Shown piece after piece: positions 22,134 through 52,604 of a stretch of DNA of 53,126 bases. The number at the start of each line of letters is the position of its first letter. The stretch's first letter is position 1. Both the position numbers and the translations under genes were made by a program. The stretch is from Chloroflexota bacterium (GTDB lineage Bacteria > Chloroflexota > Dehalococcoidia > UBA2979): positions 1 through 53,126 of the forward strand of contig JAQCIU010000022.1 in the NCBI GenBank assembly GCA_027593235.1. The letters are read 5' to 3'. The notes under the pieces were generated by a model that made no database searches, was not told the origin of the DNA, and saw only the letters and a list, made by a program, of their open reading frames with translations.

Positions 22134-23564
22134 CTAGTGATCGATGCGGATCCGATGAAACGGCACGCCGATCGAGGTGAACCCATCGATCGCACCGTTC
22201 GCCGTCTCGCGGAAGTGCAGAAGTTCCCCTGCCAGCCGGCCGTTGCGCGCCTTGAGCACCAGCGGGTCGTCGGTCGGATCGAGGTGGCACGGCATCGGCG
22301 CGCCGCCCGACCACGCAACCGTCCTCGGCAGCCCCACGCCGGGACCGAGCAGTGCGAGGCTATCGTCCACCCACGCCACCCGTCGCGGCCCGCCATAGCC
22401 GGTTTCGCCGGCGGCGCTGTGGTACGCGCCGATGAACCGCGTCGCCCACTCCGGTGGCGCCGACGGCCGCGCCGGTAGCGGCGCCGGTTGGGCGTCCGCT
22501 GCCGCCATCAGGCGGTCGAGCGTCCCGAGGGCAATGTCGGTCTGCGCCGTGTGCCCGTCGGAGTTCGTCGCGACGATCACTGCCGTCTCCGTCGCCAGGT
22601 TGAACACCGTGCGCGACAGCGATCCGGGATTGCCGCCGCCGTGCCCTAGGTACACGTGCTCGCCACGGCGGACGCCGCTGAAGCCGATGCACCAGCCGTC
22701 CGTCCAGTCATCGTCGGAGTACTGGAGGCGGTGCATCTCGCGCAGCGTCGTGCCGCGCAACACCTGCGCGCCACCGCGCTCCAGTTCGCGATCGCGGCGG
22801 AACTGCAGGGACATCCACCGCGCCATGTCCGCGATCGTCGAGTGCAGTCCGCCCGCCGGTTTGCGGTCGTTGAATACGAGGTCGCGCGCCGGACCCGGCC
22901 GGCTCGTCGTCGTCGACCACGCGTACTGCGTCACCCGCCGGTGCTCGCCCTGCTCCGGCTCGAAGGTGCTCCCGGTCATCCCCAGCGGCTCGAGGAGTGC
23001 GCTCTGGATGTACTCCGCGTACGGCCGCCCGCTCAACCGCGCCACCACCTCGCCGAGCAACGCGAAGCCGAGGTTGCAGTACTTGTGCTGCGAATCCGGC
23101 GGAATCACGATCCCCGTCTCGTCGATGTGATCGAGGATGTACTGGATCGTCGGCCCGACGCCCGTCGAGTGCCAGTCGCCCGGCACCTCGCCGCTGAGCC
23201 CCGAACGATGCGTCATCAGCCGCCGCAGCGTGACGTCCTCGACCTTGCCCGCGACCTGTTGAACGCGGGCGAACTCGGGGACGTACTCGACGAGCGGGTC
23301 ATCGATGTTCAGCAACCCCTCGTCGCGGAGTTGCATCACCGCCATCGCCGTCATCGGCTTGGTATTCGAGTCGAACCGGAACAGCGAGTGCTCATCCGGC
23401 GGCCGCGCGTCCTCGAAGTCCGCGTGACCAAAGCCGCCGCTCCACGCCAGTTCCTGCCCACGCACGATCCCGATCGCGAGGCCCACCACGCGCTGGTCCG
23501 CCATCGTCTGCTGGATGCGGGCTTCGAGGTCTGGGACGACCGCTTCGATCACCGGATCAGCCAT
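22134..23564 (-). CDS. Serine hydrolase, beta-lactamase class C/penicillin-binding-like family
   Basis: SxxK (DSNTK), YxN (YCN), LMTHRSG and HGG motifs. Confidence 0.85.
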   Translation of the reverse strand: MADPVIEAVVPDLEARIQQTMADQRVVGLAIGIVRGQELAWSGGFGHADFEDARPPDEHSLFRFDSNTKPMTAMAVMQLRDEGLLNIDDPLVEYVPEFARVQQVAGKVEDVTLRRLMTHRSGLSGEVPGDWHSTGVGPTIQYILDHIDETGIVIPPDSQHKYCNLGFALLGEVVARLSGRPYAEYIQSALLEPLGMTGSTFEPEQGEHRRVTQYAWSTTTSRPGPARDLVFNDRKPAGGLHSTIADMARWMSLQFRRDRELERGGAQVLRGTTLREMHRLQYSDDDWTDGWCIGFSGVRRGEHVYLGHGGGNPGSLSRTVFNLATETAVIVATNSDGHTAQTDIALGTLDRLMAAADAQPAPLPARPSAPPEWATRFIGAYHSAAGETGYGGPRRVAWVDDSLALLGPGVGLPRTVAWSGGAPMPCHLDPTDDPLVLKARNGRLAGELLHFRETANGAIDGFTSIGVPFHRIRIDH

Positions 23565-23576
23565 CAAGACCACTCC

Positions 23577-24668
23577 CTACATAACCACTGATGGGACAGC
23601 AACTGTGCCACCGTGACCGGCAACCGCGTTGGACAGGGCATATCTCGAGCCGTTTGCAACATAACCGCCGGCCACGGGATCCTCCGCGAGCAGCAACGGC
23701 GTGTCCAGGTCGATGAACTCGAACCCGCCGAGGCCGGCCGCGAAGTGTGCCGCAAACCCCATCGCGATCCGCGTTTCGACCATCCCGCCGATCATCAACC
23801 CGAGCCCGGCCGCCTTCGCGATCGCCGCAATCTCGAGGGCGCCAACCACGCCACATTTCACCAGCTTGATGTTGAGCACCGTCGCCAGCTCGTCGCGCGC
23901 GATCCGCAGCGCATCCTCGGGTGACCGGCACGATTCGTCGGCGGCGACGGGGACGCCACCTTCGCGAGTGACACGCCCGAGGCCGTCCCAGTCCTCGCGC
24001 GCCACCGGCTGCTCGAACAGCGCCGGCTCGATCCCCTCCGCGCGCAGCGCCGCCAGGAATCGCAGCGCCTCGTCGCTGCTGAAGCCCTCGTTGGCATCGA
24101 GGATCAGCGCGCAGTCGGGGTGCGCGCCGCGGATTGCCGTCAGCATCGCCACGTCCGCATCGAGGTCGATCCCGACCTTCGTCTTGATCGTCGTGAATCC
24201 CTCGGTGCGGTACCGCGCGGCCAGCGTCGCCGCCTCGGCGGCCGGGCAGATCGGGATCGTGATGTCGGTGGTCACCTCGTCCGAGACGCCGCCGAAGAAC
24301 TGGTAGAGCGGGACGCCCCAGTGCCGCGTCAGCGCATCGAGGATCGCCATCTCCACCCCCGCGCCCGTCGCGCGAAAGTCCGCGAGCCAGAGCGGTAGCT
24401 CCTCGGCGAGTTGCCGCCAGGCGCCGGCGTCGCGCCCGACGATTCCGGGCCGCAGCCACTCGATCGCGCCCAGCGCATCGTCCTGCCCCTCGGTCGTCAC
24501 CGGCCGCAGCGACGGCACCTCGCCCCACCCCTCGGCACCACTCTCGAGGCGGACCCGAATCGCCACATTCTCGACGTGGTCGAGCCGCGCCGAGGCGATC
24601 GTGAACGGCGCAAGCAGCGGCGCATTGAGCGGGAACGCGTCGATCGCGGCGATGACAGTGTCAGTCAT
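23577..24668 (-). CDS. Dipeptide (L-Ala-D/L-Glu) epimerase, enolase superfamily
   Basis: KxK (KTKVG), DANE, EQP, DES, NIK and DLD motifs. Confidence 0.88.
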   Translation of the reverse strand: MTDTVIAAIDAFPLNAPLLAPFTIASARLDHVENVAIRVRLESGAEGWGEVPSLRPVTTEGQDDALGAIEWLRPGIVGRDAGAWRQLAEELPLWLADFRATGAGVEMAILDALTRHWGVPLYQFFGGVSDEVTTDITIPICPAAEAATLAARYRTEGFTTIKTKVGIDLDADVAMLTAIRGAHPDCALILDANEGFSSDEALRFLAALRAEGIEPALFEQPVAREDWDGLGRVTREGGVPVAADESCRSPEDALRIARDELATVLNIKLVKCGVVGALEIAAIAKAAGLGLMIGGMVETRIAMGFAAHFAAGLGGFEFIDLDTPLLLAEDPVAGGYVANGSRYALSNAVAGHGGTVAVPSVVM

Positions 24669-24722
24669 CGGGCCAACCTACTCCACGCCGGTGGTTCCTC
24701 GGGGTGTCCTCGTTCACCGGAC

Positions 24723-24754
24723 AAGAAAACGGGACGCCTCTCGGCGCCCCGTTT
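24723..24754 (-). terminator. Intrinsic terminator after the acyl-CoA dehydrogenase
   Basis: Minus strand AAACGGGGCGCC-GAGA-GGCGTCCCGTTT followed by TCTT. Confidence 0.7.
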
Positions 24755-24777
24755 ATTTCGAGGACTGCGGTCCCGAG

Positions 24778-26013
24778 CTAGCCTCGCGGCAGTCCGAGGC
24801 CGCGCGTCGCGATGATGTTCCGCTGAATCTCTGAGGTACCCGCGGCGATCGTCGCCGGGACCGAGCGCACGTACGACTGCGTGAAGCTGCCGTTCAATGG
24901 TGCGTAGGCGTTCGGCGGGTCGCTGTACGTGTTCCGGTCGTCGTCGTCGTGACCCCAGAACTGCGCGTACTGCCCGAAGACCTGAGTCCCGGTGCGGGCC
25001 AGCTTCTGGCTCAGCTCCGAGTTGAACAGCTTCGATGTGGACGCCTCGTAGTTCGGGATCTGACCAGCCGACTGCATCGAGATGATGCGGAAGCTGAACT
25101 GGAACTGGACCTCGGACTCGACCCAACGGTCGGCGATCTGGTGCCGCAGCGACACCGACTCGTCCAGGCGAGAGCGCTGCTGGCCCTCGTCCGTGTGGAC
25201 GTAGTCGATCAGCTTCTGGATGGTCTTCCGGCTCGTGATCGCGCCGGTGATGTTCGACCGCTCGAAGTCGAGCAGCGTCGCGCCGACGTACCAGCCGCGG
25301 TTCACCTCACCGACGACGTTCCCGGCCGGGACGCGCACGTCCTCGAAGAACGTCTCATTGAAGTGGTAGTGACCGCCCATGTCGATCAGCGGACGGATCG
25401 ACAGGCCCGGCAGGCCCATCGGCATCAGCATGAACGAAATGCCGCGGTGTTTCGGCGCCTCCGGGTCGGTCCGCGTGAGGACGTAGAGCCAGTCGGCGTA
25501 CTGCGCGCCGGAGGTCCAGATCTTCTGGCCGTTGATGACGTAGTCGTCGCCGTCGCGCACCGCGCGCGTCTGCAGCGACGCCAGGTCCGAGCCGGAGCCC
25601 GGTTCGGAGTAGCCCTGCTGCCAGTTCACCTCGCCCGACAGGATCTTCGGGAGGTGCTCAGCCTTCTGCTCGTCGGTGCCGTGCACGATGATGGTCGGCC
25701 CGAGCTGGCTGACGCCCTGCCCGCCGACGGCCGGTGCACCAGCCTGCGCCATCTCCTGCTTGAAGATGAACTGCTCGATCGGGGTGAGCCCGGCTCCGCC
25801 GTACTCCTTGGGCCAGTGCGGCGCGATCCAGCCCTTGTCGGCCAGCGCGGCCTGCCACGCCTCGGCGGCGCCACGCTTCGTCGTGTCGGACGACTTGCGG
25901 TCCTGGACCCACTCGCCTTCACCGTGCTGGTACGCCTCCGGGAGGCCGTTGTCGATCAGACCAACAACCTCGGAGCGAAATGCTGCCTGTTCGGGCGTGT
26001 CGTTCCAGTCCAT
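24778..26013 (-). CDS. Acyl-CoA dehydrogenase (FadE-like)
   Basis: QGYSEPGSGSDLASL, INGQKIWTS, TIAAGTSEIQRNIIA. Confidence 0.92.
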   Translation of the reverse strand: MDWNDTPEQAAFRSEVVGLIDNGLPEAYQHGEGEWVQDRKSSDTTKRGAAEAWQAALADKGWIAPHWPKEYGGAGLTPIEQFIFKQEMAQAGAPAVGGQGVSQLGPTIIVHGTDEQKAEHLPKILSGEVNWQQGYSEPGSGSDLASLQTRAVRDGDDYVINGQKIWTSGAQYADWLYVLTRTDPEAPKHRGISFMLMPMGLPGLSIRPLIDMGGHYHFNETFFEDVRVPAGNVVGEVNRGWYVGATLLDFERSNITGAITSRKTIQKLIDYVHTDEGQQRSRLDESVSLRHQIADRWVESEVQFQFSFRIISMQSAGQIPNYEASTSKLFNSELSQKLARTGTQVFGQYAQFWGHDDDDRNTYSDPPNAYAPLNGSFTQSYVRSVPATIAAGTSEIQRNIIATRGLGLPRG

Positions 26014-42220: not shown

Positions 42221-43930
42221 ATGACCACTCAGACCAGTCCCGCCACCACCGACAAGACCAACGGCGCTGGTGAAACCATCCTCGGAGGTGTGCTCCTCGC
42301 CCGTTCGCTGAAACAGCAGGGCGTCGACTACATGTTCGGCGTCGTTGGCTTCCCGGTCTCGGAACTCGCCGGCTACGCGCAGGATGAAGGCATCAAGTAC
42401 GTCGGCATGCGCAACGAGCAGGCCGCCTCGTACGCGGCACAGGCCGCCAGCTACATCCTCGGCCGGCCGCAGGTCTGCATCGTCGTTTCCGGACCCGGCG
42501 TCATCCACGGCCTCGCCGGTCTCGCTAACGCCAAGTCCAACTGCTGGCCGATGATCCTCATCGGTGGTGCATCCGCCATCAGCCAGAACGGAATGGGCGC
42601 CTTCCAGGAAGAGAACCAGGTCGAGATCGCCCGGCTGGTCTCCAAGTACGCCCACTCGCTCGATCGCGCCGACCGCATCCCGTACTACGTCGAACAGGCC
42701 GTCCGAACCTCGATCTATGGCCGTCCCGGTCCCGCCTACCTCGACGCCCCGGACGACGTCCTCACCGCCGAGATTCCGATCTCCTCGGTGAAGACCATGC
42801 CGACGGTTCCCAACCCGCCGAAGCCCGGCGTCCCGGAACGCGACATCCAGGCCGCGCTCGCCGCGCTCAAGTCCGCCGAGCGGCCGCTCGTCATCATTGG
42901 CAAGGGCATGGCCTGGGCGCGCGCGGAGAACGAGGTCCTCGAGCTGATCGAGAAGACCCAGCTCCCGTTCCTCCCGACCCCCATGGGCAAGGGCGTGATC
43001 GACGACGATCACCCGCTCGCCATCTCCCCGGCCCGCACGCTCGCGCTGCGTGAGGCGGACGTCGTGCTCTTGCTCGGCGCCCGGCTGAACTGGATCCTCC
43101 ACTTCGGCAAGCCGCCGCGCTGGGCGGAGGACGTGCGCATCATCCAGGTCGACATCGCCGCCGAGGAGATCGGCGCGAACGTTCCGGCGGAGGTCGGTCT
43201 CGTCGGTGACGGCGCCGCGATCGTCGCCCAGCTCAACCAGGCGATCGACGCGGACGGTTGGCAGTACCCCGGTGAGACCACCTGGCGCTCGCAGCTCCAG
43301 CAGAAGGTCGACGAGAACGTCCAGATCAGTGAGCAGCTCATGGCCGACGACTCGTCGCCCCTGAACTACTACCGTGTCCTCAAGGAAGTGCGCGACACGC
43401 TGCCGGCGGACACCGTCATCGTCTCCGAGGGCGCCAACACGATGGACATCGGGCGCACCGTGCTCCCGAACAAGGGCGCGCGCACCCGCCTCGATGCCGG
43501 CACCTACGGCACCATGGGCGTCGGCCTCGGCTTCGCGATCGGCGCCGCTGTCGCCAAGCCCGGTACCCGCATCGTCGCCGTCGAGGGTGACGCCGCCTTC
43601 GGCTTCTCCGGCATGGAGTACGAAACGATGGTTCGGCACAACCTGCCGATCACCATCGTCGTCATCAACAACAACGGCATCGGCGGCGGCATCGCCGAAC
43701 TGCCGGTCGACCGCGACCCGCCGCCCGGCGTCTACAGCCCCGAGGCACGCTACGAGCGGATCGCGGACATGTTCGGTGGCCGCAGCTACTACGTCACCGA
43801 AGCACATGAGCTGGAGCCGGCCCTCAGCGCCGCCAACACCGGCGAGGGCCCCGCGATCGTTCACATCCGTATCGACCCGCGCGCCGGCCGCAAGCCGCAG
43901 CAGTTCGGCTGGCACACGCCCACGAACTGA
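42221..43930 (+). CDS. ThDP-dependent 2-hydroxyacyl-CoA lyase/synthase (HACL-type; oxalyl-CoA decarboxylase family)
   Basis: FGVVGFPV, MRNEQAASYAA, GAFQE, SEGANTMDIGR, GDAAFGFSGME...NNNG, C-terminal RKPQQFGW. Confidence 0.88.
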   Translation: MTTQTSPATTDKTNGAGETILGGVLLARSLKQQGVDYMFGVVGFPVSELAGYAQDEGIKYVGMRNEQAASYAAQAASYILGRPQVCIVVSGPGVIHGLAGLANAKSNCWPMILIGGASAISQNGMGAFQEENQVEIARLVSKYAHSLDRADRIPYYVEQAVRTSIYGRPGPAYLDAPDDVLTAEIPISSVKTMPTVPNPPKPGVPERDIQAALAALKSAERPLVIIGKGMAWARAENEVLELIEKTQLPFLPTPMGKGVIDDDHPLAISPARTLALREADVVLLLGARLNWILHFGKPPRWAEDVRIIQVDIAAEEIGANVPAEVGLVGDGAAIVAQLNQAIDADGWQYPGETTWRSQLQQKVDENVQISEQLMADDSSPLNYYRVLKEVRDTLPADTVIVSEGANTMDIGRTVLPNKGARTRLDAGTYGTMGVGLGFAIGAAVAKPGTRIVAVEGDAAFGFSGMEYETMVRHNLPITIVVINNNGIGGGIAELPVDRDPPPGVYSPEARYERIADMFGGRSYYVTEAHELEPALSAANTGEGPAIVHIRIDPRAGRKPQQFGWHTPTN

Positions 43931-43978
43931 GCAGACGTACCAGCGGCGGCCGTCCATGGACGGCCGCCGGGGAGGCCG

Positions 43979-45220
43979 ATGATGACCGCCGAGCCAGCAC
44001 AGACGACTGCCCTCGAGGGCCTGCGCATCCTCGACATGACGCAGTACGAGGCGGGAACGTCCTGCACGCAGGCGCTCGCCTGGCTCGGCGCCGACGTGGT
44101 GAAGGTTGAACCGCCCGTCTACGGCGATCCGGGGCGGCGCGTCCGCCTCGGGCAGGGCAACTCGCCCTACTTCCTCAACTGGAACAGCAACAAGCGAAGC
44201 ATCGTCCTCGATCTCGCACAGCCCGAGGGCCGCCAGCTCCTCCTCGATATGGCGCCGCACTACGACGTGTTCGTCGAGAACTACGGCCCCGGCGTCGTCG
44301 AGAAGCTTGATATCGGCTACGAGGTGATGAAGGCCGCCAACCCCTCGATCATCTACGCCCGGCTCAAGGGCTTCGGCACCAGCGGCCCCTACGCCGACTA
44401 CAAGTGCTTCGACATGGTCGCCCAGGCCGCCGCCGGCGCGTTCTCCGTCACCGGTGAGCGTGGCGGCCCCCCGATGCGCCCCGGTCCCACCACCGGCGAC
44501 GCCGGCACCGGCGTCCAGCTCGCCCTTGCGATCACCGCTGCCTACGTCCAGAAGCAACGCACCGGCCAGGGCCAGCTCATCGAGATCTCGATGCAGGAGG
44601 CGATGACCTACTTCATGCGCACGCAGATCGCCAACGGCTCCGATTGGGGCAACACGGTCACCCAGCGCAACGGCAACGGCCCCACCGCTCCCGTGAACCT
44701 CTACCCCTGCAAGGGGAGCGACCCGAACGACCCACACGCGGAGCGTGGTCCCAACGACTACGCCTTCGTCATGTGCGTCACCACCCGCATGTGGGACTCC
44801 CTCTGCGCCGCGATGGATCGCTCCGAACTTACCGTCGATCCCCGTTTCGAGACCCCCGAGGCCCGCGTCGAGCACGCCGACGCCCTCTACGAAGAGATCG
44901 CCGCGTGGACCACGCAGCACTCCAAGTACGAGGTGATGCGCATCCTCGGCGAAGCTGGCGTCCCGGTCAGCGCCAACCTCGACACCTACGACCTCTTCCA
45001 CGATCCGCACCTCACCGAGCGTGGATTCGTGCACACGCTCCAACACCCGGAGCACGGCGAAATCCGACTCCTCGGCTGGGCGCCCCGAATGTCCGCGAGC
45101 CACGTCCCGATCCGTCACGGCCCGCTGATGGGGGAGCACTCCGACGAAATCCTCGAGGCCGATCTCGGTCTCGACGCCGATCGTCTTGCCGCCCTGCGCT
45201 CGAAGGGCGTCGTCTCCTAG
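43979..45220 (+). CDS. frc: Formyl-CoA-transferase-like family III CoA-transferase
   Basis: AGTSCTQALAWLGADVVKVE and PTTGDAGTG (catalytic Asp); directly downstream of the HACL/OXC-family gene. Symbol is by similarity and context. Confidence 0.7.
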   Translation: MMTAEPAQTTALEGLRILDMTQYEAGTSCTQALAWLGADVVKVEPPVYGDPGRRVRLGQGNSPYFLNWNSNKRSIVLDLAQPEGRQLLLDMAPHYDVFVENYGPGVVEKLDIGYEVMKAANPSIIYARLKGFGTSGPYADYKCFDMVAQAAAGAFSVTGERGGPPMRPGPTTGDAGTGVQLALAITAAYVQKQRTGQGQLIEISMQEAMTYFMRTQIANGSDWGNTVTQRNGNGPTAPVNLYPCKGSDPNDPHAERGPNDYAFVMCVTTRMWDSLCAAMDRSELTVDPRFETPEARVEHADALYEEIAAWTTQHSKYEVMRILGEAGVPVSANLDTYDLFHDPHLTERGFVHTLQHPEHGEIRLLGWAPRMSASHVPIRHGPLMGEHSDEILEADLGLDADRLAALRSKGVVS

Positions 45221-45523
45221 ACGTTCCCAACCCACCGACCGCCGGTCCTCGGTCCCGGGCTCGGCAGTGCCACGTCCGCGTACCCCGCTGACCTCCAGTC
45301 ACACCCTTCCCTGACGGCGTTACGTCGTGACCCGCGGGTTAACCCGTAAGAGTTGACGCTCCGCGCCGGCTGCTGACGCCACGGTGAGCCAGTGGTGTGC
45401 CCATTCCATCAGTCGTTCGTCAGCAGGGACGGGCTGAGGGGAGTGGAAATCCCGATGCCAACCGAAGATCACGACAGCGCAAGAAGCGCAAGAATTTTCC
45501 ATCCGCAAGGAAGGAGCCTCATC

Positions 45524-45985
45524 ATGGGTTCACTGTTCGGCCGAGGCCCGCTCACGCTGGTCGTTGCGGCAATTGCTCTGTTTGCGGTGGGAGGCGCGGC
45601 ATTCACCGCGGCGAACACCACCCCGGGAAGCTCGGCCGGTGACGACACCGCCTCGGTGATTACCGGTTTCACGATCTCCGGGATCACCTACACCCTGGAC
45701 ACCACGACCCCGACCAACATCGATACGGTCGCGTTCACCGCCCAGGCTGATCACGGGGGCCCGTGGCCGGCTGCACTCGGTACCAAGCTCGGGCGGTTCA
45801 CCACCACCGCGACGCACTGGTTCGTCTGTACCGACAACGCCGGTGGAGCCGCGGCAGGAACCTACGTCGTCACCTGCCTGACCGATACCACCGGCAACGG
45901 CGGTAACTACTACAACGGCATCACCGCGTCGGTGCAGCTCACGACGGCGACCGCCGTCGAGTTCGACACCGTCTTGGTCCAGTAG
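45524..45985 (+). CDS. Small secreted protein with SipW-type signal peptide (candidate TasA/pilin-like filament subunit)
   Basis: AAGGAG ribosome-binding site; hydrophobic leader ending GGAAF-TAAN; Thr/Gly/Ala-rich mature region with two Cys; adjacent to a SipW-type peptidase. Confidence 0.7.
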   Translation: MGSLFGRGPLTLVVAAIALFAVGGAAFTAANTTPGSSAGDDTASVITGFTISGITYTLDTTTPTNIDTVAFTAQADHGGPWPAALGTKLGRFTTTATHWFVCTDNAGGAAAGTYVVTCLTDTTGNGGNYYNGITASVQLTTATAVEFDTVLVQ

Positions 45986-46008
45986 ACCCGCACTCTAGGC
46001 TCCTCCGT

Positions 46009-46036
46009 TCCCCCGGGGCTGCAATGCCCCGGGGGG
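46009..46036 (+). terminator. Strong intergenic hairpin between the secreted subunit and the peptidase
   Basis: TCCCCCGGGGC-TGCAAT-GCCCCGGGGGG with no U-tract, so it may be an mRNA-stabilising or attenuating stem rather than a terminator. Confidence 0.5.
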
Positions 46037-46065
46037 TGCGGGCGGATCTCTGAACGGCGTCTCTG

Positions 46066-47712
46066 ATGCCCAATCGCTCCACCACTGCAATGACCGGCCT
46101 GGCCGGTCTGTTTTCGTTGGTGGTCGCGGCCGTCCTCTTGTGGCTCTTCGCCCCCATGACCCTCGGCGGCAGCTTCGGCTACGTCACCGTCACTGGGAAC
46201 AGCATGTCGCCCCTCCTGGACACCGGGGACCTCGTGTTCCTGCGCAAGTCGGCCGACTACGAGGTTGGTGATGCCGTCGCCTACCGGCATCCTCAGATCG
46301 GCACCGTCCTCCACCGCATAGTCGCCGACGACGGGCAGCGCTTCACCCTGCGTGGCGACAACCGCGCTGGCGAGGACACCTACCAGCCCACGGCCGATGA
46401 TGTCATCGGCCGCGAATGGGTCATCTTGCCCAGCGGCGGCAAGGTCATCCGCGAACTCCAGCAACCCCGCAACCTCGGCTTGCTCGTCGCCGCCGTCGGC
46501 CTCTTGCTCGTCTCGGGTGGCACGTCATCCCGAGGTCCACGCGGACGCCTGCGACTCGCCCGCTCACCACACCGACCGCGGCGCGATCTCAGCGTCTTCT
46601 CGCAGACCGGTCGCCAGCTCGCCGTCCTCGCTGTCGCACTCGCGATCGGCTCGCTCGTCCTGTTCGCGTTGGTCACCCTCTCCGGCACCACCCGCGAGGT
46701 CTCCGAGGCCGTCCCGTTCAGCGAGCGCGGCACCTTCTCCTACGGAGGTCCCGTCGCCGGTGGCGTCTACGACGACGATCGCCTTCGCGCGCCTGAACCG
46801 CTCTACCGCCAGCTCGTCGACACCCTCCCGCTGCGATTCGACTACGACCTCTCCGCGACCGAGGCGAATGGCCCAATCACCGAAGCCACCGGTACCTACG
46901 AACTCGTGCTCGAAGTCGGCACCGAAGACGGCTGGACGCGCACCTACCCGCTCCAACCCTCCACCCCGTTCGCGAACGGTGGATTCGCCGTCGAAGCCGA
47001 CCTCGATCTCGCGGCGCTCGAGGCCGATCTCGCCGCCGTCGCCGAGCGAACCGGCATCGCTTCGACCAGCCACGTCATCCGCGTCGTTGCCACCGTCCAG
47101 GCGGTCGGGCGCATGGACGGTCTCCCCTTCGAAACCAACTACCGTCACTACGCGCAGTTCCGCCTCGCGCCGCTCCAGCTCCGTTTCGACGGCACACCCG
47201 ACGCACTCTCGCTCGCCGAGGCCCGCACCGTCTCCCGACCGGTCACCGCACAACGCACGCTGAATGTGCCAATGCTTCCGTTCAGCCTGCGCTACGCCCA
47301 GTTCCCGCTCGTCGGCGCGTTGGGCCTGCTCATCGCGGCGGCCCTCGCCGTCGTCGTCGCGAAGGCCACGCTCACCACCTGGAGCCGCGGCGAAGCCGCT
47401 CGGATCCGCGCCGCCTACGACGCCCTCCTCGTCGAAATCGCCGAGGAACGCGCCAGCTTCGGCTCGCGCCCGCAGGACGTCAGCCGCTTCGAGGACCTCG
47501 TCCGCCTTGCCCGCGCGGAGGGCCTCGCGATCATGCACCGTGCCGGCCGCGATCGAGACGAATACTTCGTGGCCACCGCCGATCGAAGCTGGCGCTACGC
47601 CGTCAGCCGCTCGGGCGGTGCCACGCTGCCGCTCCCCATCCGATCGGCCCCGTTCCGTGAGAGCGATCGTCCTGCCGACGACAGTCGGCACATCACCACC
47701 ACCGAGGGCTAA
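46066..47712 (+). CDS. SipW/archaeal-type (Ser-His) signal peptidase I fused to a DUF5305-like membrane/extracellular region
   Basis: VTGNSMSP..GDLV, VLHRIV, LRGDN...D; further TM helices; C-terminal V.RFEDLVRLA...IMH...YFV...RY. Confidence 0.82.
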   Translation: MPNRSTTAMTGLAGLFSLVVAAVLLWLFAPMTLGGSFGYVTVTGNSMSPLLDTGDLVFLRKSADYEVGDAVAYRHPQIGTVLHRIVADDGQRFTLRGDNRAGEDTYQPTADDVIGREWVILPSGGKVIRELQQPRNLGLLVAAVGLLLVSGGTSSRGPRGRLRLARSPHRPRRDLSVFSQTGRQLAVLAVALAIGSLVLFALVTLSGTTREVSEAVPFSERGTFSYGGPVAGGVYDDDRLRAPEPLYRQLVDTLPLRFDYDLSATEANGPITEATGTYELVLEVGTEDGWTRTYPLQPSTPFANGGFAVEADLDLAALEADLAAVAERTGIASTSHVIRVVATVQAVGRMDGLPFETNYRHYAQFRLAPLQLRFDGTPDALSLAEARTVSRPVTAQRTLNVPMLPFSLRYAQFPLVGALGLLIAAALAVVVAKATLTTWSRGEAARIRAAYDALLVEIAEERASFGSRPQDVSRFEDLVRLARAEGLAIMHRAGRDRDEYFVATADRSWRYAVSRSGGATLPLPIRSAPFRESDRPADDSRHITTTEG

Positions 47713-48077
47713 CGCCGGATCCCGAGGAACGAGACTCTCGTGAGCGTCGAGGGTCGGGAAGACCCCTCGATCAGCGCCTGATCCAAGGGAATACCCCGTC
47801 AACACGACGTCCAAATCGCCCGTACCGTCGGGCTAATACCCGTGCGGCATCGCGCGGGCAGGCGGCTGACGTGTTTCGTTGGCGAGTGATTGGCGGACAA
47901 ATGCCGGAGCGTGGTGCCGGGCCGGGAGGGAATCCCGTAGGTCGGTCCCCCCGTCCGTCGCGGCCCCCGCGGAGCGCCATTCCTGGGCGCTCCTCCGCGG
48001 AGGACTCCGCGCGGTCGCGCTGGCTCTGGCCGTCCAGCGCACAGCCTCCGGCTGCGCCCTCGGCGCTCCCCGCCGCG

Positions 48078-49010
48078 GTGCAGCCCGGATCGACCACGCC
48101 CGCGCTGCAGGCCTGCCCCTGGCTCTACCTCCACACCGATGCCGACTCCCGCGCCTCCCACGTCACCGCCGATCATCGCTGCGAGATCCGTTCCGACGAG
48201 GTCCCGGGCCCAGGCCACCAGCTCGCCTACTGCCTCTCGACGAACCACGTCTCCTGCCCGCAACTCCTCAGCTACGAGGCACGCCGCCACGCCACCACCG
48301 AGGGCGCGCGTCCTGAGCCCGTCGCCACCTCAGCCGGTTACGAGGAGTTGCGAAAGACCCGCGCGGACCTGCGCGCATCGTTGATCGGCGCCCCCCGCCC
48401 TCCGAATGCCGTCCAACACAGCAGAGGCACCCTCGCCGGTCGCGTCCGTTGGCTGGCCGCCGGGGCATTGGGTGCGCTCGCCCTCGTCGCCGCGTTCACC
48501 GTGTACGGCAACAACAGCGCCACCTCGGATCCGGACGCGGATGCTGCCGCTCGGACCTCCACGGTCGCGACCCCGTTCCCCACGAATACGCAGGACGCCG
48601 CGGCTGCTGCCGTTCAGTTGCCGTCCACGCCGGACATCGTCAACAGCGAATCGTTGTTTGACAGGACAGGGGCCACGGGACAGGGATCCTCCCCGCTCGC
48701 CGGCCCCGAACAGCGCCCGAACGGCACGGCCGCATCAGGTGTCCCCACCGCGAGCCCGACCGCCGAACCGACCCCACGGCCGACGAACGAACCAACGCCC
48801 GTCCCGCCCCCGACGACCTACATCGTCCAGGTCGGTGACACCCTCGGCCAGATCGCCCAGAGCCTCGGCATCGACATCCTCACCCTCGCCCAGGCCAACG
48901 GCATGACCACCGAGACCTTCATCTACGAAGGCGATGTCCTCCAGCTCCCCGTGGATCCGGACCTCGACGCCCCCCGCTCGTCCGAGGACCCCGCCAGCCC
49001 TACCGGCTAG
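48078..49010 (+). CDS. Membrane-anchored LysM protein with N-terminal Cys/His-rich domain
   Basis: CPWL...HRC...HQLAYCL..NHVSCP, one TM helix, Pro/Thr linker, LysM YIVQVGDTLGQIA...LAQANG...IYEGDVLQLP. Start is inferred. Confidence 0.8.
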   Translation: MQPGSTTPALQACPWLYLHTDADSRASHVTADHRCEIRSDEVPGPGHQLAYCLSTNHVSCPQLLSYEARRHATTEGARPEPVATSAGYEELRKTRADLRASLIGAPRPPNAVQHSRGTLAGRVRWLAAGALGALALVAAFTVYGNNSATSDPDADAAARTSTVATPFPTNTQDAAAAAVQLPSTPDIVNSESLFDRTGATGQGSSPLAGPEQRPNGTAASGVPTASPTAEPTPRPTNEPTPVPPPTTYIVQVGDTLGQIAQSLGIDILTLAQANGMTTETFIYEGDVLQLPVDPDLDAPRSSEDPASPTG

Positions 49011-49504: not shown

Positions 49505-49775
49505 AGCACATCCCCTCTGAACGATGCCTCCCGCGAGCTTCAACCTGGAGCGGGGGTCAACCGCTCAAGTCTATCGATGCCACCTCGTGACCGTCGCTAC
49601 AGACCGCCCACTACGCCGTCGAACTCCCGGCCCAGCGCGCGCTCCGCGCCTGGACGCGGCGCCCCGACACCGTCGCTCCCCTCCTCGACGCCTCCGAGGG
49701 CCTTCGCACCCCCTCGGCCATTACTGGCGGGCGCGCCTACAATGCTGCCAATCCGCATCTCGAGGAGGTCCCGCA

Positions 49776-50873
49776 GTGGCGGCAGTCGTGGCCAGTGACA
49801 AATCCAGCACCGGCAACTACTTCGAGGACCTGACCACCGGCCTCGAAATTCGCCACGCCACCCCCCGCACCATCACCGAGGGCGATCAGGCCGTCTACCT
49901 GGCGCTTACCGCTAGCCGCTTCCCGCTTTTCTGCGACGCCGAATTCGCCCGCTCGGTCGGCTTCCAGCGCGAACTCGTCAACGATCTGCTCGTCTTTCAC
50001 GTCGTCTTCGGGAACAGCGTTCCGGACATCTCGCTCAACGCCATCGCCAACCTTGGCTACGCGTCGCTTCGCTTCGGCGCGCCGGTCTATCCCGGCGACA
50101 CCATCACCTCGCACACCACGGTGCTCGGCCAGCGCGAATCCAGCCGCGGCGACACCGGCGTCACCTGGGTGCGCACCGTCGGCCGCAACCAGCGCGGCGA
50201 CGAGGTGCTGTCCTTCATCCGCTGGGTGCTGATGAACAAGCGCGATCCTGAGACCCGCACCGGCGTGGACGACGCGCCGAAGACCCCGGACTTCGTCCAG
50301 CCCAGCCAGCTCTTCGTGCCCAACCAGCTCAAGCTCGACAAGTTCGATCCCGCTATCACCGGCGGCCGCTGGTGGTGGCGCGACTACGAGCCCGGTGAGC
50401 GCATCCACCACATCGAGGGCGTCGCCATCGAGGAAGCCGAGCACCAGATGGCCGCGCGCCTCTACCAGAACACCGCGCGCGCTCACTTCAACGCGCACGC
50501 CTTGAAGGACTCACGCTTCGGCAAACGCGTCATCTACGGCGGCCACGTCATTTCGATTGCGCGCGAACTCAGCTTCAACGGCCTCGAAAACGTGCTGCGC
50601 ATCCTCGCCTTCAACGGCGGGACCCACTCCAACCCCACCTTCGCCGGCGACACGATCTTCGCCTGGACCGACGTCCTCGAGCGGATCGACCTCGCGCGCT
50701 CGGATGCCGGCGCGTTGCGGCTCCGCCTCGTCGCCGTCAAGAACGCCGATCCCAACACCGAGGACGTGCCGTTCAAGGTCGCCGATGACGACGGCCGCGA
50801 GCGATACCATCCCAATGTGGTGCTCGATCTCGACTACACCGTCCTGGTCCCCAAGGCGCCGCCGCAGAAGTAG
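49776..50873 (+). CDS. mch: Mesaconyl-CoA hydratase (beta-methylmalyl-CoA dehydratase), double MaoC fold
   Basis: GNYFED, HATPRTITEGD, VPDISLNAIANLGY, RLYQNTARAHFN, IYGGHVIS, SFNGL, VVLDLDY; GAGGAGG ribosome-binding site. Confidence 0.9.
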   Translation: MAAVVASDKSSTGNYFEDLTTGLEIRHATPRTITEGDQAVYLALTASRFPLFCDAEFARSVGFQRELVNDLLVFHVVFGNSVPDISLNAIANLGYASLRFGAPVYPGDTITSHTTVLGQRESSRGDTGVTWVRTVGRNQRGDEVLSFIRWVLMNKRDPETRTGVDDAPKTPDFVQPSQLFVPNQLKLDKFDPAITGGRWWWRDYEPGERIHHIEGVAIEEAEHQMAARLYQNTARAHFNAHALKDSRFGKRVIYGGHVISIARELSFNGLENVLRILAFNGGTHSNPTFAGDTIFAWTDVLERIDLARSDAGALRLRLVAVKNADPNTEDVPFKVADDDGRERYHPNVVLDLDYTVLVPKAPPQK

Positions 50874-50939
50874 GCGTCCGCTCCTCGGCGGAGCGGCAAC
50901 CGTTCGAGGTCACCGACCAACCCCGCGAGAGGACCGATC

Positions 50940-52604
50940 GTGACAACCACCGCCCTCAACCCGCTCACGTCCGCCCGCGAGCTGGTCGACGCCGCGCAGC
51001 TCGTAGTCGACGCCGCGCTCGCGCACGGCGCGACCGTCACCGAGGGCGGTCGGCTCATCGACGACCACCAGGTCCACACCGAGCGCCTCGCCTACCTCGC
51101 CACCCAGGTTCGCGCTGCCCACGAGCAGACCGCCTACGCGGAGCGTGTTTCAAAAGTGGCAGGTGCGGAGCGCGTCGGAGACGCCCTCCAGGCCGAGTAC
51201 GCGCTGATTTACGCCGCCGAGGTGGTCCAGGCCCTCCGCTCCCAGATCGAGACCGCCTGGGACGACTTCGGTCTGACCGAGGACGGCGTCGCCGGCCTCT
51301 ACACCCCCGCCGCCCGTGAGGCGGTCCGCGCCGGCTCCAGCGAGGCCCGTATCCGCGAGGTCGGCCGCATCGTGATCGGCTCGCTCGGCGTGAACTCCTG
51401 CGACCTCGAGGACGAAGTCGCCTCGCTCACCCGCGACATGGCGCGCGAGTTCGCGAAGAACGAGGTCGCACCGATCGCCCAGGACATCCACCGTGAAGAC
51501 CTGCTCGTCCCCGACAAGCTCCTCGCAAGCTTCAGCGCGCAGGGCTTCTTCGGCTCCTCGATCCCCGAGGAGTACGGCGGCACCGGCATGGGCGACCTGC
51601 CGATGATCGTCATCACCGAGGAGCTCTCGGCGGCCTCGCTCGCCGCCGCCGGATCGCTGGCCACCCGCCCGGAGATCATCGCCAAGGCGCTGCTCGCCGG
51701 CGGCACCGACGAGCAGAAGCAGTACTGGCTCCCGCGGATCGCCGCCGGCGAAGAAATCTGCGCCGTCGCCGTCACCGAACCGGACATCGGATCCGATGTC
51801 GCCTCGCTCCAGTGCCGCGCCGAACCGGCAGAGTACGAGGGCAAGCGCGGCTGGCGGATCAACGGCGCCAAGGCCTGGAGCACCTTCTCCGGTCGCGCCA
51901 CGGTCCTCGGCCTGCTCGCCCGCACCGGCCCGAGTGGCTCCGGTAACCGCGGCCTCTCGCTGTTCATCATCCCCAAGCCCGCCTTCGACGGGCACCAGTG
52001 GGCGTTCGAACAGCCCGAGGGCGGCAAAATGAGCGGCACCGCCAATCCCACCCCCGGCTACCGAGGCATGCACTCCTTCACCATCGCCATCGACGATCTC
52101 TGGGTCTCCCACGAGAACCTCGTCGGCGGCGACGAAGGCATCGATAAGGGCTTCTTCCTCCAGATGGGCGGCTTCGCTGCCGGCCGCCTCCAGACCGGTG
52201 GCCGTGCCTGCGGCGTCGCCCAGGCCGCCCTCGAGAAGGCCTGCCAGTACGTCCAGCAACGCAGCCAGTTCGGCGTCGCGCTCGCCGACTTCCAGCTCAC
52301 CCAGTACAAGATCGGCCGCATGGCCGCCCAGATCGCCGCCGGCCGTCAGCTCACCTACCAGGCCGCCCGCACCTTCGACACCCGCGCCGTCGAACCGTCG
52401 ATGGCCAAGCTCCTCACCTGCGACATCGCCGGCGAAGTCACCCGCGAGGCCCAACTCCTCCACGGCGGCTGGGGCTACTCCGAAGAAGACCCAATCGCCC
52501 GCTATGTCGTCGACGCCCTTGTGCTCCCGATCTTCGAAGGCGTGAAGCCCATCCTCGAACTCAAGGTCGTCGGCCGCGCCCTCCTCGCCGGAGCCGCCGG
52601 CTAA
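50940..52604 (+). CDS. mcd: (2S)-methylsuccinyl-CoA dehydrogenase-like acyl-CoA dehydrogenase
   Basis: 554-aa ACAD with N-terminal extension (DDHQ), GSLATRPEI, GYRGM, RLQT..RA.GVAQAA, IFEG; adjacent to mch. Confidence 0.75.
   Translation: MTTTALNPLTSARELVDAAQLVVDAALAHGATVTEGGRLIDDHQVHTERLAYLATQVRAAHEQTAYAERVSKVAGAERVGDALQAEYALIYAAEVVQALRSQIETAWDDFGLTEDGVAGLYTPAAREAVRAGSSEARIREVGRIVIGSLGVNSCDLEDEVASLTRDMAREFAKNEVAPIAQDIHREDLLVPDKLLASFSAQGFFGSSIPEEYGGTGMGDLPMIVITEELSAASLAAAGSLATRPEIIAKALLAGGTDEQKQYWLPRIAAGEEICAVAVTEPDIGSDVASLQCRAEPAEYEGKRGWRINGAKAWSTFSGRATVLGLLARTGPSGSGNRGLSLFIIPKPAFDGHQWAFEQPEGGKMSGTANPTPGYRGMHSFTIAIDDLWVSHENLVGGDEGIDKGFFLQMGGFAAGRLQTGGRACGVAQAALEKACQYVQQRSQFGVALADFQLTQYKIGRMAAQIAAGRQLTYQAARTFDTRAVEPSMAKLLTCDIAGEVTREAQLLHGGWGYSEEDPIARYVVDALVLPIFEGVKPILELKVVGRALLAGAAG

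Follow-up and report, generated by a model that had tools for sequence, protein, structure and literature searches.

Why would a bacterium keep a signal peptidase gene directly behind the gene of one small secreted protein? The question is raised by a locus in the window, by which we mean the whole 53,126-nucleotide stretch analysed here (positions 1 to 53,126 of contig JAQCIU010000022.1, assembly GCA_027593235.1, from a Chloroflexota bacterium of the Dehalococcoidia, UBA2979). Gene A of this locus encodes a secreted protein of an unnamed family. Gene B encodes a signal peptidase I (SPase I) fused to a DUF5305 module. The sequence comparisons below make it highly probable that B is a peptidase dedicated to A as its substrate. 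A third gene, C, accompanies the pair in most loci. Taken as a whole, the locus may represent a dedicated maturation and secretion cassette whose subunit polymerises, a reading to which our analysis gives an even chance. The two genes of the window are:

45524-45985, + strand: gene A, a 153-aa secreted protein of an unnamed family (open reading frame and translation)
46066-47712, + strand: gene B, a 548-aa signal peptidase I-DUF5305 fusion (open reading frame, hidden Markov models (HMMs), AlphaFold2)

Both genes lie exactly where a first-pass annotation of this DNA had placed them. Its description also holds: a 153-aa secreted, Thr-rich protein with one Cys pair, followed by a 548-aa membrane protein with the motifs GNSMSP, HRIV and RGDN.

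The pairing of A and B is widely conserved. With a pattern derived from the small protein alone, we fetched 40 loci from species-representative genomes. These loci span Dehalococcoidia, Anaerolineales, Chloroflexia, Acidimicrobiales, Gaiellaceae, Thermoleophilia, Solirubrobacteraceae and one metagenome-assembled genome (MAG) of the Acidobacteriota. The peptidase gene lies directly downstream of A on the same strand in 39 of the 40 loci, and at the sole miss the contig stops 51 nt past the A gene. Peptidase and DUF5305 share one frame in 37 of the 40. The first-pass annotation had said that its proposal would fail if homologues of A occurred apart from SipW-type peptidases; instead the two adjoin at each of these 40 loci except the one on the cut contig. 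A sample of 401 genomes of the phylum gives a similar picture. It contains a family A gene in 26 genomes (one of them, G173, unpublished), and at 28 of the 30 loci returned a homologue of the peptidase gene follows A immediately and on the same strand, in most cases sharing one frame with DUF5305.

The number of A genes per locus varies. Two or three tandem A genes precede the peptidase gene at five loci (L114, L116, L120, L124 and L133), and extra A-like copies follow it at three loci of Gaiellaceae and related Actinomycetota (L127, L128 and L138). Multiple copies are the pattern expected of major and minor subunits. Besides these arrays, there are two lone second copies of A (L050 on G055:C53 and L051 on G354:C99), where the 12-16 kb fetched contain no peptidase or DUF5305 match.

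Is the cassette restricted to A and B? In most loci an open reading frame for 130-150 aa lies directly 3' of the peptidase gene. Its product, protein C, consists of a leader whose end, A-[AT]-N-T-V-P-x-T, is a motif shared with A, a KPxxC segment, four to five GGxGxD repeats and a Cys-containing C-terminus. The repeats match Pfam HemolysinCabind, and NCBIfam gave only generic RTX-repeat matches. C is predicted from its sequence to carry an RTX-type calcium-binding beta-roll. Searched with a local HMM built from nine such proteins, 34 of the 40 loci contain C. At three of the six loci without a match the contig stops too early, so that C is present in 34 of the 37 evaluable loci.

At the window locus 158 nt separate the stop codon of B from the next open reading frame, and there is no adjacent C gene. 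Within the same genus, the orthologous locus has C in one genome (G454) and lacks it in another (G453). The genome of the window also carries a paralogous cassette on another contig (C15, 22836-25725, minus strand), in which all three genes are present. There, A (25300-25725) encodes 141 aa and is 43% identical to A of the window, B (23329-25290) encodes a 653-aa SPase-DUF5305 fusion and C (22836-23390) encodes 184 aa with four RTX repeats according to Pfam. Furthermore, an orphan C-type gene lies on contig C35 (107107-107553, minus strand). Its leader reads ...ASTAANLTPNSS and is followed by RTX-type repeats; the protein is 42% identical to C of the orthologous locus in G454, and no peptidase or family A gene occurs within about 4 kb. 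Because C is found in 34 of 37 loci and has copies on C15 and C35, the two-gene arrangement of the window is a derived local state that has lost its adjacent C gene. The first-pass annotation took this arrangement for a minimal two-gene system, which has to be revised: the usual cassette consists of three genes.

At nine loci (L119, L127, L130, L132, L137, L139, L142, L143 and L145) the C-type match stands in the same stop-free frame as the peptidase-DUF5305 fusion. These loci belong to Gaiellaceae, other Actinomycetota and the Acidobacteriota MAG. Possibly they encode a single three-part polypeptide that cuts itself, or a start codon could lie inside the open frame.

What kind of enzyme is B? 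Its parts are as follows:

46171-46428, + strand: endoplasmic reticulum (ER)/SipW-type signal peptidase domain, residues 36-121, with S46, H83 and D98/D104 (TIGR02228, conservation, Foldseek, AlphaFold2)
46603-47607, + strand: DUF5305 (TafG-like) module (PF17231 and AlphaFold2)
N-terminal part of B: first transmembrane segment (TM1) of the AlphaFold2 model
Residues 134-153 of B: TM2 (AlphaFold2)
Between TM2 and TM3 of B: Arg-rich loop of low confidence (AlphaFold2)
Residues 180-206 of B: TM3 (AlphaFold2)
Residues 209-409 of B: large extracellular beta-sandwich (AlphaFold2)
Residues 410-440 of B: TM4 (AlphaFold2)
Residues 443-514 of B: cytoplasmic alpha/beta domain (AlphaFold2)

An alternative start at M9 would give the 540 aa that are called elsewhere. 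The three motifs lie at residues 44-49 (GNSMSP), 83-86 (HRIV) and 96-99 (RGDN). Across 31 homologues no variation occurs at M47, P49, H83, R84, I85, G97, D98 or D104, and S46 and N99 are conserved in at least 90%. The conserved residues S46, H83, D98 and D104 would fit a peptidase of the Ser-His type. Going by the SipW and SEC11 literature, we take S46 to be the nucleophile, the His (not a Lys) to be the general base and the Asp residues to have their usual roles.

Profile searches agree with this assignment. B scores 54.9 bits against TIGR02228, the archaeal/ER-type signal peptidase I (cut-off 51.85; 58.1 bits in the genome search), and 41.8 bits against DUF5305 (PF17231, cut-off 29) over residues 290-506. 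PF17231 is also precomputed on 27 of the 34 listed B homologues. Among the HMM checks that the first-pass annotation had suggested for B, those with TIGR02228, DUF5305 and Peptidase_S24 (33.5 bits, cut-off 23.3) exceed their cut-offs, whereas Peptidase_S26 stays below its own (20 bits versus 22.9). The equivalog model for SipW of Bacillus subtilis, NF046067, gives only 28.6 bits versus a cut-off of 190. Judged by these profiles, the peptidase of B is SipW-like in type and no orthologue of B. subtilis SipW. In Foldseek the best matches of the catalytic domain are human SEC11 structures (7p2q_A, E 2.5e-5, and 7p2p_A), followed by the pilus-associated SipA of Streptococcus pyogenes (4n31_B, E 7e-4). 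Hence, calling B a SipW-type peptidase fused to a DUF5305-like region, as was done at first sight, was correct: TIGR02228 and PF17231 both exceed their cut-offs and SEC11 is the closest fold.

The hydropathy profile of B has four hydrophobic segments (5-39, 136-156, 181-210 and 410-441). The AlphaFold2 model, computed with the 31 homologues, has a mean predicted local distance difference test score (pLDDT) of 82.7. According to its topology, the peptidase domain and the beta-sandwich are predicted to face outward and the tail to be cytoplasmic. The first-pass layout of transmembrane segment, ectodomain, transmembrane segment and tail is recovered, except that it missed one transmembrane segment after the peptidase domain; the order is segment, loop, segment, ectodomain, segment, tail. 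From the second of these segments onward, B has the DUF5305 architecture: transmembrane segment, extracellular beta-sandwich, transmembrane segment and cytoplasmic alpha/beta domain. The same architecture is described in section 9 of bioRxiv 10.64898/2026.01.04.697558 (the AbpX preprint; this source and PMC11821415, PMC12337348 and PMC9245690 are cited throughout from excerpts of their text). Two more TIGR02228-type peptidases of the genome exceed the cut-off and lack DUF5305 (contig C53, 44238-44849, and contig C6, 32649-33698, both plus strand); on inspection neither has obvious partner genes. Counting B and its paralogue on C15, the genome thus has four ER-type signal peptidases.

The substrate side of the pair is the protein A itself. 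Its features are:

45509-45516, + strand: Shine-Dalgarno-like GGAAGGAG, 7 nt 5' of the ATG of gene A (read from the sequence)
45524-45607, + strand: Sec-type leader, residues 1-28, with R7 in the n-region and L10-V22 as h-region (sequence and column frequencies)
45599-45667, + strand: residues 26-48 (A-F-T-A-A-N-T-T-P-x-S-x-A-G-D-x...G), the most conserved stretch, which may form an N-terminal extension or donor strand (column frequencies of 127 sequences)
45665-45982, + strand: residues 48-153, the beta-sandwich core of six main strands that contains the C102/C118 pair
46001-46046, + strand: GC-rich stem-loop between A and B without a U-tract, proposed attenuator or mRNA stabiliser

The position of GGAAGGAG favours the ATG at 45524 over an upstream GTG at 45392 as the start of gene A. 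The leader reads ...LFAVGGAAFTAANTTPG, and the stretch after its hydrophobic run L10-V22 is GGAAFTAANTTPGSSAG. The n-region is MGSLFGRGP. It lacks an RR motif, and the family consensus likewise has a single R; the Tat twin-arginine signal that characterises Tafi subunits is therefore absent from both. Going by the column frequencies of the 127 sequences, three cuts of the leader have the small residues expected at -3 and -1, namely A26|F27, T28|A29 and A30|N31, and cleavage after A26, T28 or A30 would fit. The cut F27|T28 originally proposed is unlikely because it would place a Phe at -1, which type I signal peptidases disfavour.

Counted from A26, mature A has 128 residues, 30 of which are Thr (23%), and an isoelectric point (pI) of 4.05; it is Thr-rich and acidic. 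It contains exactly two Cys, C102 and C118; neither varies in 35 homologues, and among 127 sequences their conservation is about 96%. Among the 127 sequences N31 (99%), A38 (96%), G39 (98%), G41 (93%) and G48 (99%) are nearly constant. The family signature is a hydrophobic region followed by Y-[AG]-F-[AT]-A-[AS]-N-T-V-P-x-[ST]-x-A-G-[DE]-G-x3-[IV]-S-G-Y-T-[VI], and past it Y56, P63, F71 and both Cys are conserved as well. Thus the best-conserved part of A lies at or just past the leader and outside the globular core. In the AlphaFold2 monomer (pLDDT 76.9) a six-stranded sandwich is predicted confidently from about residue 48, and the 10-residue blocks over residues 21-50 reach a mean pLDDT of only 53-66. 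A multimer prediction with four copies of residues 29-153, which assumes the cut T28|A29 and so omits A26-T28, residues that the mature protein would include if the cut were A26|F27, scored 0.00 versus a mark of 0.42, a value that counts neither for nor against polymerisation.

How large is family A? No model of NCBIfam or Pfam matches A, even at E<=10 or E<=1, respectively. Provided that the short SipW-dependent signal peptide model TIGR04088 is part of the NCBIfam library and survives the HMMER filters, it too gave no match to A at E<=10. A word-indexed search returned 67 relatives, nearly all of 141-155 aa and from Dehalococcoidia MAGs, together with forms of about 122 aa named Gaiellaceae. 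A profile search of 1.84 billion cluster representatives yielded 1628 members at E<=0.001 and 733 at E<=1e-10, mostly of 115-140 aa. Fused or longer forms are rare (only one, of 337 aa, at E<=1e-5), and eight longer representatives contain no Pfam domain. A Pfam scan of 127 relatives found no family matched by more than one member. In the ESM Atlas the clusters nearest to A are unnamed sets of 'hypothetical protein', mostly from Actinomycetota. Family A is large and unnamed, and it occurs in Chloroflexota and Actinomycetota. Three structure searches with A returned only background-level matches to immunoglobulin (Ig)-like folds.

The stem-loop between A and B is very stable. A 91-nt stretch there folds with -52.4 kcal/mol (z = -4.6), and 0 of 200 shuffled sequences fold as well. 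Where related loci have a spacer of 55 nt or more, comparable long stems can be recognised by eye in 9 of 10; at ten other loci the spacer does not exceed 31 nt and a long stem is absent.

Does A take the place of a known subunit? The TasA/camelysin family PF12389 occurs in 37 of the same 401 genomes (one of them, G344, unpublished). None of these 37 belongs to the 26 genomes with family A. We treat this zero overlap only as a hint. At 20 PF12389 loci of Chloroflexota a homologous SipW-type peptidase lies within about 1.5 kb in 17, mostly directly downstream, and DUF5305 occurs at none of the 20. Since 17 of the 20 TasA-like loci have a homologous peptidase nearby, family A fills the genomic slot that TasA holds elsewhere.

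To explain the arrangement of the cassette we propose the following mechanism. A would be a small Sec-exported protein and B its own ER/SipW-type peptidase with a TafG-like accessory attached. B would cleave A, and also C, at or just before the invariant motif ...A-F-[AT]-A-A-N-T-V-P.... A cut at A26|F27 would mirror TafA, and T28|A29 would be the register shared with most C proteins. After cleavage, an Ig-like core of six strands would carry about 20 conserved residues as an N-terminal extension. Inserted as a donor strand, this extension could then complete the core of a neighbouring subunit, the next in line, and so build a surface fibre or a matrix polymer. Precedents for such a fibre are TasA (tapA-sipW-tasA) and the archaeal Tafi (TafA and TafE with TafD and TafG). 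That A forms a donor-strand polymer is, from our analysis, evenly balanced.

Several features would suit this model. The N-terminal extension is highly conserved yet modelled with low confidence, which is subunit-like; the extension of AbpX, of 16 residues, is likewise described as unstructured in the monomer (AbpX preprint). C has the extension but a beta-roll body, and for this reason we propose that it acts as an initiator or cap, similar to TapA or TafC, which would donate a strand and be unable to accept one. The gene order A-B-C, substrate-peptidase-substrate, mirrors the tapA-sipW-tasA logic described in PMC9245690. The stem-loop between A and B fits a subunit that outnumbers its enzyme, as it could let the subunit transcript exceed the enzyme transcript. 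The DUF5305 ectodomain could either hold the fibre, as first suggested, or only aid the peptidase, as the papers have it.

Not all results favour polymerisation or a tie to TasA, and the following weigh against them. The absence of genomes with both PF12389 and family A is weak evidence, because chance alone predicts only about 2.4 such genomes and relatedness makes the genomes non-independent. A does not match PF12389 in Pfam at E<=1, and hhalign of A with 20 TasA-like proteins of Chloroflexota gives a probability of 28% over 18 columns of the leader only. The family A profile against all PDB sequences reaches a best E of 0.26, again in the leader only. The two exceptions among the 30 loci of the phylum sample are second A copies (in G055 and G354) with no peptidase within about 8 kb. 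The long stems of the other loci were judged by eye, without shuffle controls. As the Pfam, hhalign and PDB results show, the first-pass annotation was right to see no similarity between A and TasA beyond the leader.

What else could the cassette do? A and C may be surface or secreted proteins that do not polymerise, for example a small adhesin, part of the envelope or a factor that binds calcium, and that need a dedicated peptidase with DUF5305 without forming any fibre. We regard this as possible, if doubtful. Synteny indicates functional coupling only, not polymerisation, and the fold of A is a generic Ig-like sandwich with no link to solved fibre subunits. However, the substrates beside dedicated SipW/ER-type peptidases (TasA and TapA; TafA, TafC and TafE) are donor-strand fibre proteins in the excerpts of PMC9245690, PMC11821415, PMC12337348 and the AbpX preprint, and recognition of the leader alone poorly explains an invariant extension common to the otherwise unrelated A and C. 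Alternatively, A could assemble into a two-dimensional lattice, an S-layer or sheath-like coat that the DUF5305 ectodomain attaches to the membrane. This is unlikely: A has no lattice-specific feature, its S-layer matches are at background level and the order A-B-C parallels fibre loci.

A could also be a highly diverged member of the TasA superfamily (the clade of TasA, AbpX and Tafi), and it may even be among the AbpX homologues that the preprint reports in Chloroflexota. Its leader resembles the TasA type (...GG-x-x-aromatic-A-..., with examples in Chloroflexota), its pI is close to 4 as reported there for AbpX homologues, and SPase I and DUF5305 are nearby. The case is nevertheless very unlikely, given that similarity ends with the leader in hhalign, that PF12389 does not match, and that the AbpX-locus SPase I is described with ten transmembrane segments and B has four. 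In addition, the core of A has about 105 residues in six strands, and the jelly roll of the TasA type has about 200 residues. Finally, the adjacency might be incidental and A processed by the housekeeping signal peptidase. We consider this extremely improbable, as the two genes adjoin, with order and strand retained, at 39 of 40 loci over two or three phyla.

Strand-donating polymerisation is the reading that we carry forward. In its most specific form, which we offer tentatively and would not expect to hold in full, family A is an unrecognised class of donor-strand surface fibre. It would be built from 13-kDa six-stranded Ig-like subunits, with one polypeptide, the SPase I-DUF5305 fusion, as both peptidase and membrane platform, and with a calcium-binding C that has the same donor strand as cap or nucleator. 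Both Chloroflexota (marine Dehalococcoidia among them) and Actinomycetota would use it widely, and it would occupy the niche of TasA where TasA is absent.

Several other genes of the window lie near the locus. Downstream, a 379-aa protein (47871-49010, plus strand) combines a conserved Cys/His-rich N-terminal cytoplasmic region (CPWLYLH...HRCEIR...CPQL), one transmembrane segment, a Pro/Thr-rich linker and a C-terminal LysM domain. We considered this LysM protein as a cell-wall anchor and rejected it: the end of its transmembrane segment (...AAFTVYGNN) is not conserved in two orthologues of the same genus, and the gene is adjacent only within the genus. Upstream (42221-45220, plus strand) lie a three-domain thiamine pyrophosphate enzyme and a family III coenzyme A (CoA)-transferase, syntenic in two genomes of the same genus. 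By our own reading the first looks like an oxalyl-CoA decarboxylase, and the pair like oxalate/formyl-CoA metabolism. Further downstream (49524-52604, plus strand) a mesaconyl-CoA hydratase/MaoC-like gene (Pfam) is followed by a 554-aa open reading frame that we read as a putative acyl-CoA dehydrogenase.

What would it mean if A polymerises? A cross-domain basis of biofilm matrices is emerging in the fibres that SipW-type peptidases mature (TasA, Tafi, AbpX). To our knowledge, their bacterial side is so far known almost only from Bacillota. For many uncultured Chloroflexota and Actinomycetota, family A would then be the leading candidate for a surface-fibre system. Its compact three-gene cassette would be open to reconstitution, and B would be a natural fusion for probing what DUF5305 contributes to a signal peptidase. 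If A does not polymerise, dedicated SipW-type peptidases serve substrates beyond fibres.

The system was initially called undescribed. This is too strong, because both the SPase I-DUF5305 fusion and DUF5305 (TafG) as the partner of a fibre-locus peptidase were published in 2025-26. PMC11821415 mentions a peptidase fused to DUF5305 in some bacteria, including Tepidiforma (Chloroflexota), and bioRxiv 10.64898/2026.01.04.697558 cites the fusion in Anaerolinea thermophila (E8MZY1). According to PMC11821415, deletion of tafD leaves TafA unprocessed and abolishes the haloarchaeal Tat-fimbriae, and the DUF5305 protein TafG is thought to act with TafD. A cryo-EM structure of a Tafi pilus with strand donation is given in PMC12337348. 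DUF5305 is regarded as a putative SPase I accessory, and AbpX homologues are placed in Chloroflexota, by the AbpX preprint; PMC9245690 records PF12389 in Chloroflexota. In the literature on DUF5305, TasA and Chloroflexota signal peptidases, supplements that list loci excepted, we found no description of family A or of the RTX-type C. The kind of system is known: small secreted subunits are encoded next to a SipW-type peptidase that is dedicated to them and comes with DUF5305. New here are the large size of an unnamed subunit family with no detectable link to TasA and its strict synteny, the conserved calcium-binding third component and the spread of the cassette over Chloroflexota and Actinomycetota.

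How does the cassette compare with known systems? With the eukaryotic signal peptidase complex it shares SEC11 as the best structural match of the catalytic domain, and the combination of a catalytic subunit with a membrane accessory that has a beta-sandwich ectodomain, a parallel by description that the AbpX preprint draws likewise. In contrast, the eukaryotic complex is a general-purpose ER enzyme with no dedicated substrate.

In AbpX loci, as the preprint presents them, SPase I and DUF5305 likewise adjoin small, acidic subunits that donate a strand, together with minor or tip subunits. A further likeness is calcium: AbpX assembly is calcium-induced, and here C has calcium-binding repeats. 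However, the ten-segment SPase I of AbpX loci differs from the four segments of B. Mature AbpX subunits are described as aromatic at position 2 and acidic at position 4, whereas A reads F-T-A-A-N, with no acidic residue.

In Tafi a peptidase acts with a DUF5305 protein beside Ig-like strand-donating subunits, a likeness by description. Mature TafA begins at Phe-30 according to mass spectrometry and not at the SignalP site (PMC11821415), so that its N-terminus is a Phe inside the predicted leader, like F27 of A if the cut falls after A26. The differences are a leader of the Sec type and not Tat, a bacterial host and the joining of peptidase and DUF5305 in one polypeptide. There are no counterparts of TafB, TafC or TafF in the window.

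A gene for SPase I adjoining the subunit gene, a hallmark of the TasA superfamily, is found at 39 of the 40 loci. The tapA-sipW-tasA operon of B. subtilis likewise has an ER/SipW-type peptidase I gene between two of its secreted substrates, a minor partner proposed as the first supplier of a donor strand, and a small, acidic major subunit, TasA, whose leader ends small-aromatic-small. The TasA-like genes of Chloroflexota share the order of subunit and then SipW-type peptidase. Unlike TasA with its jelly roll of about 200 residues, A has a core of about 105 residues in six strands, and the two have no detectable homology. The operons differ in two further respects: here the peptidase is fused to DUF5305, and the minor partner is a predicted RTX-type beta-roll protein instead of TapA.

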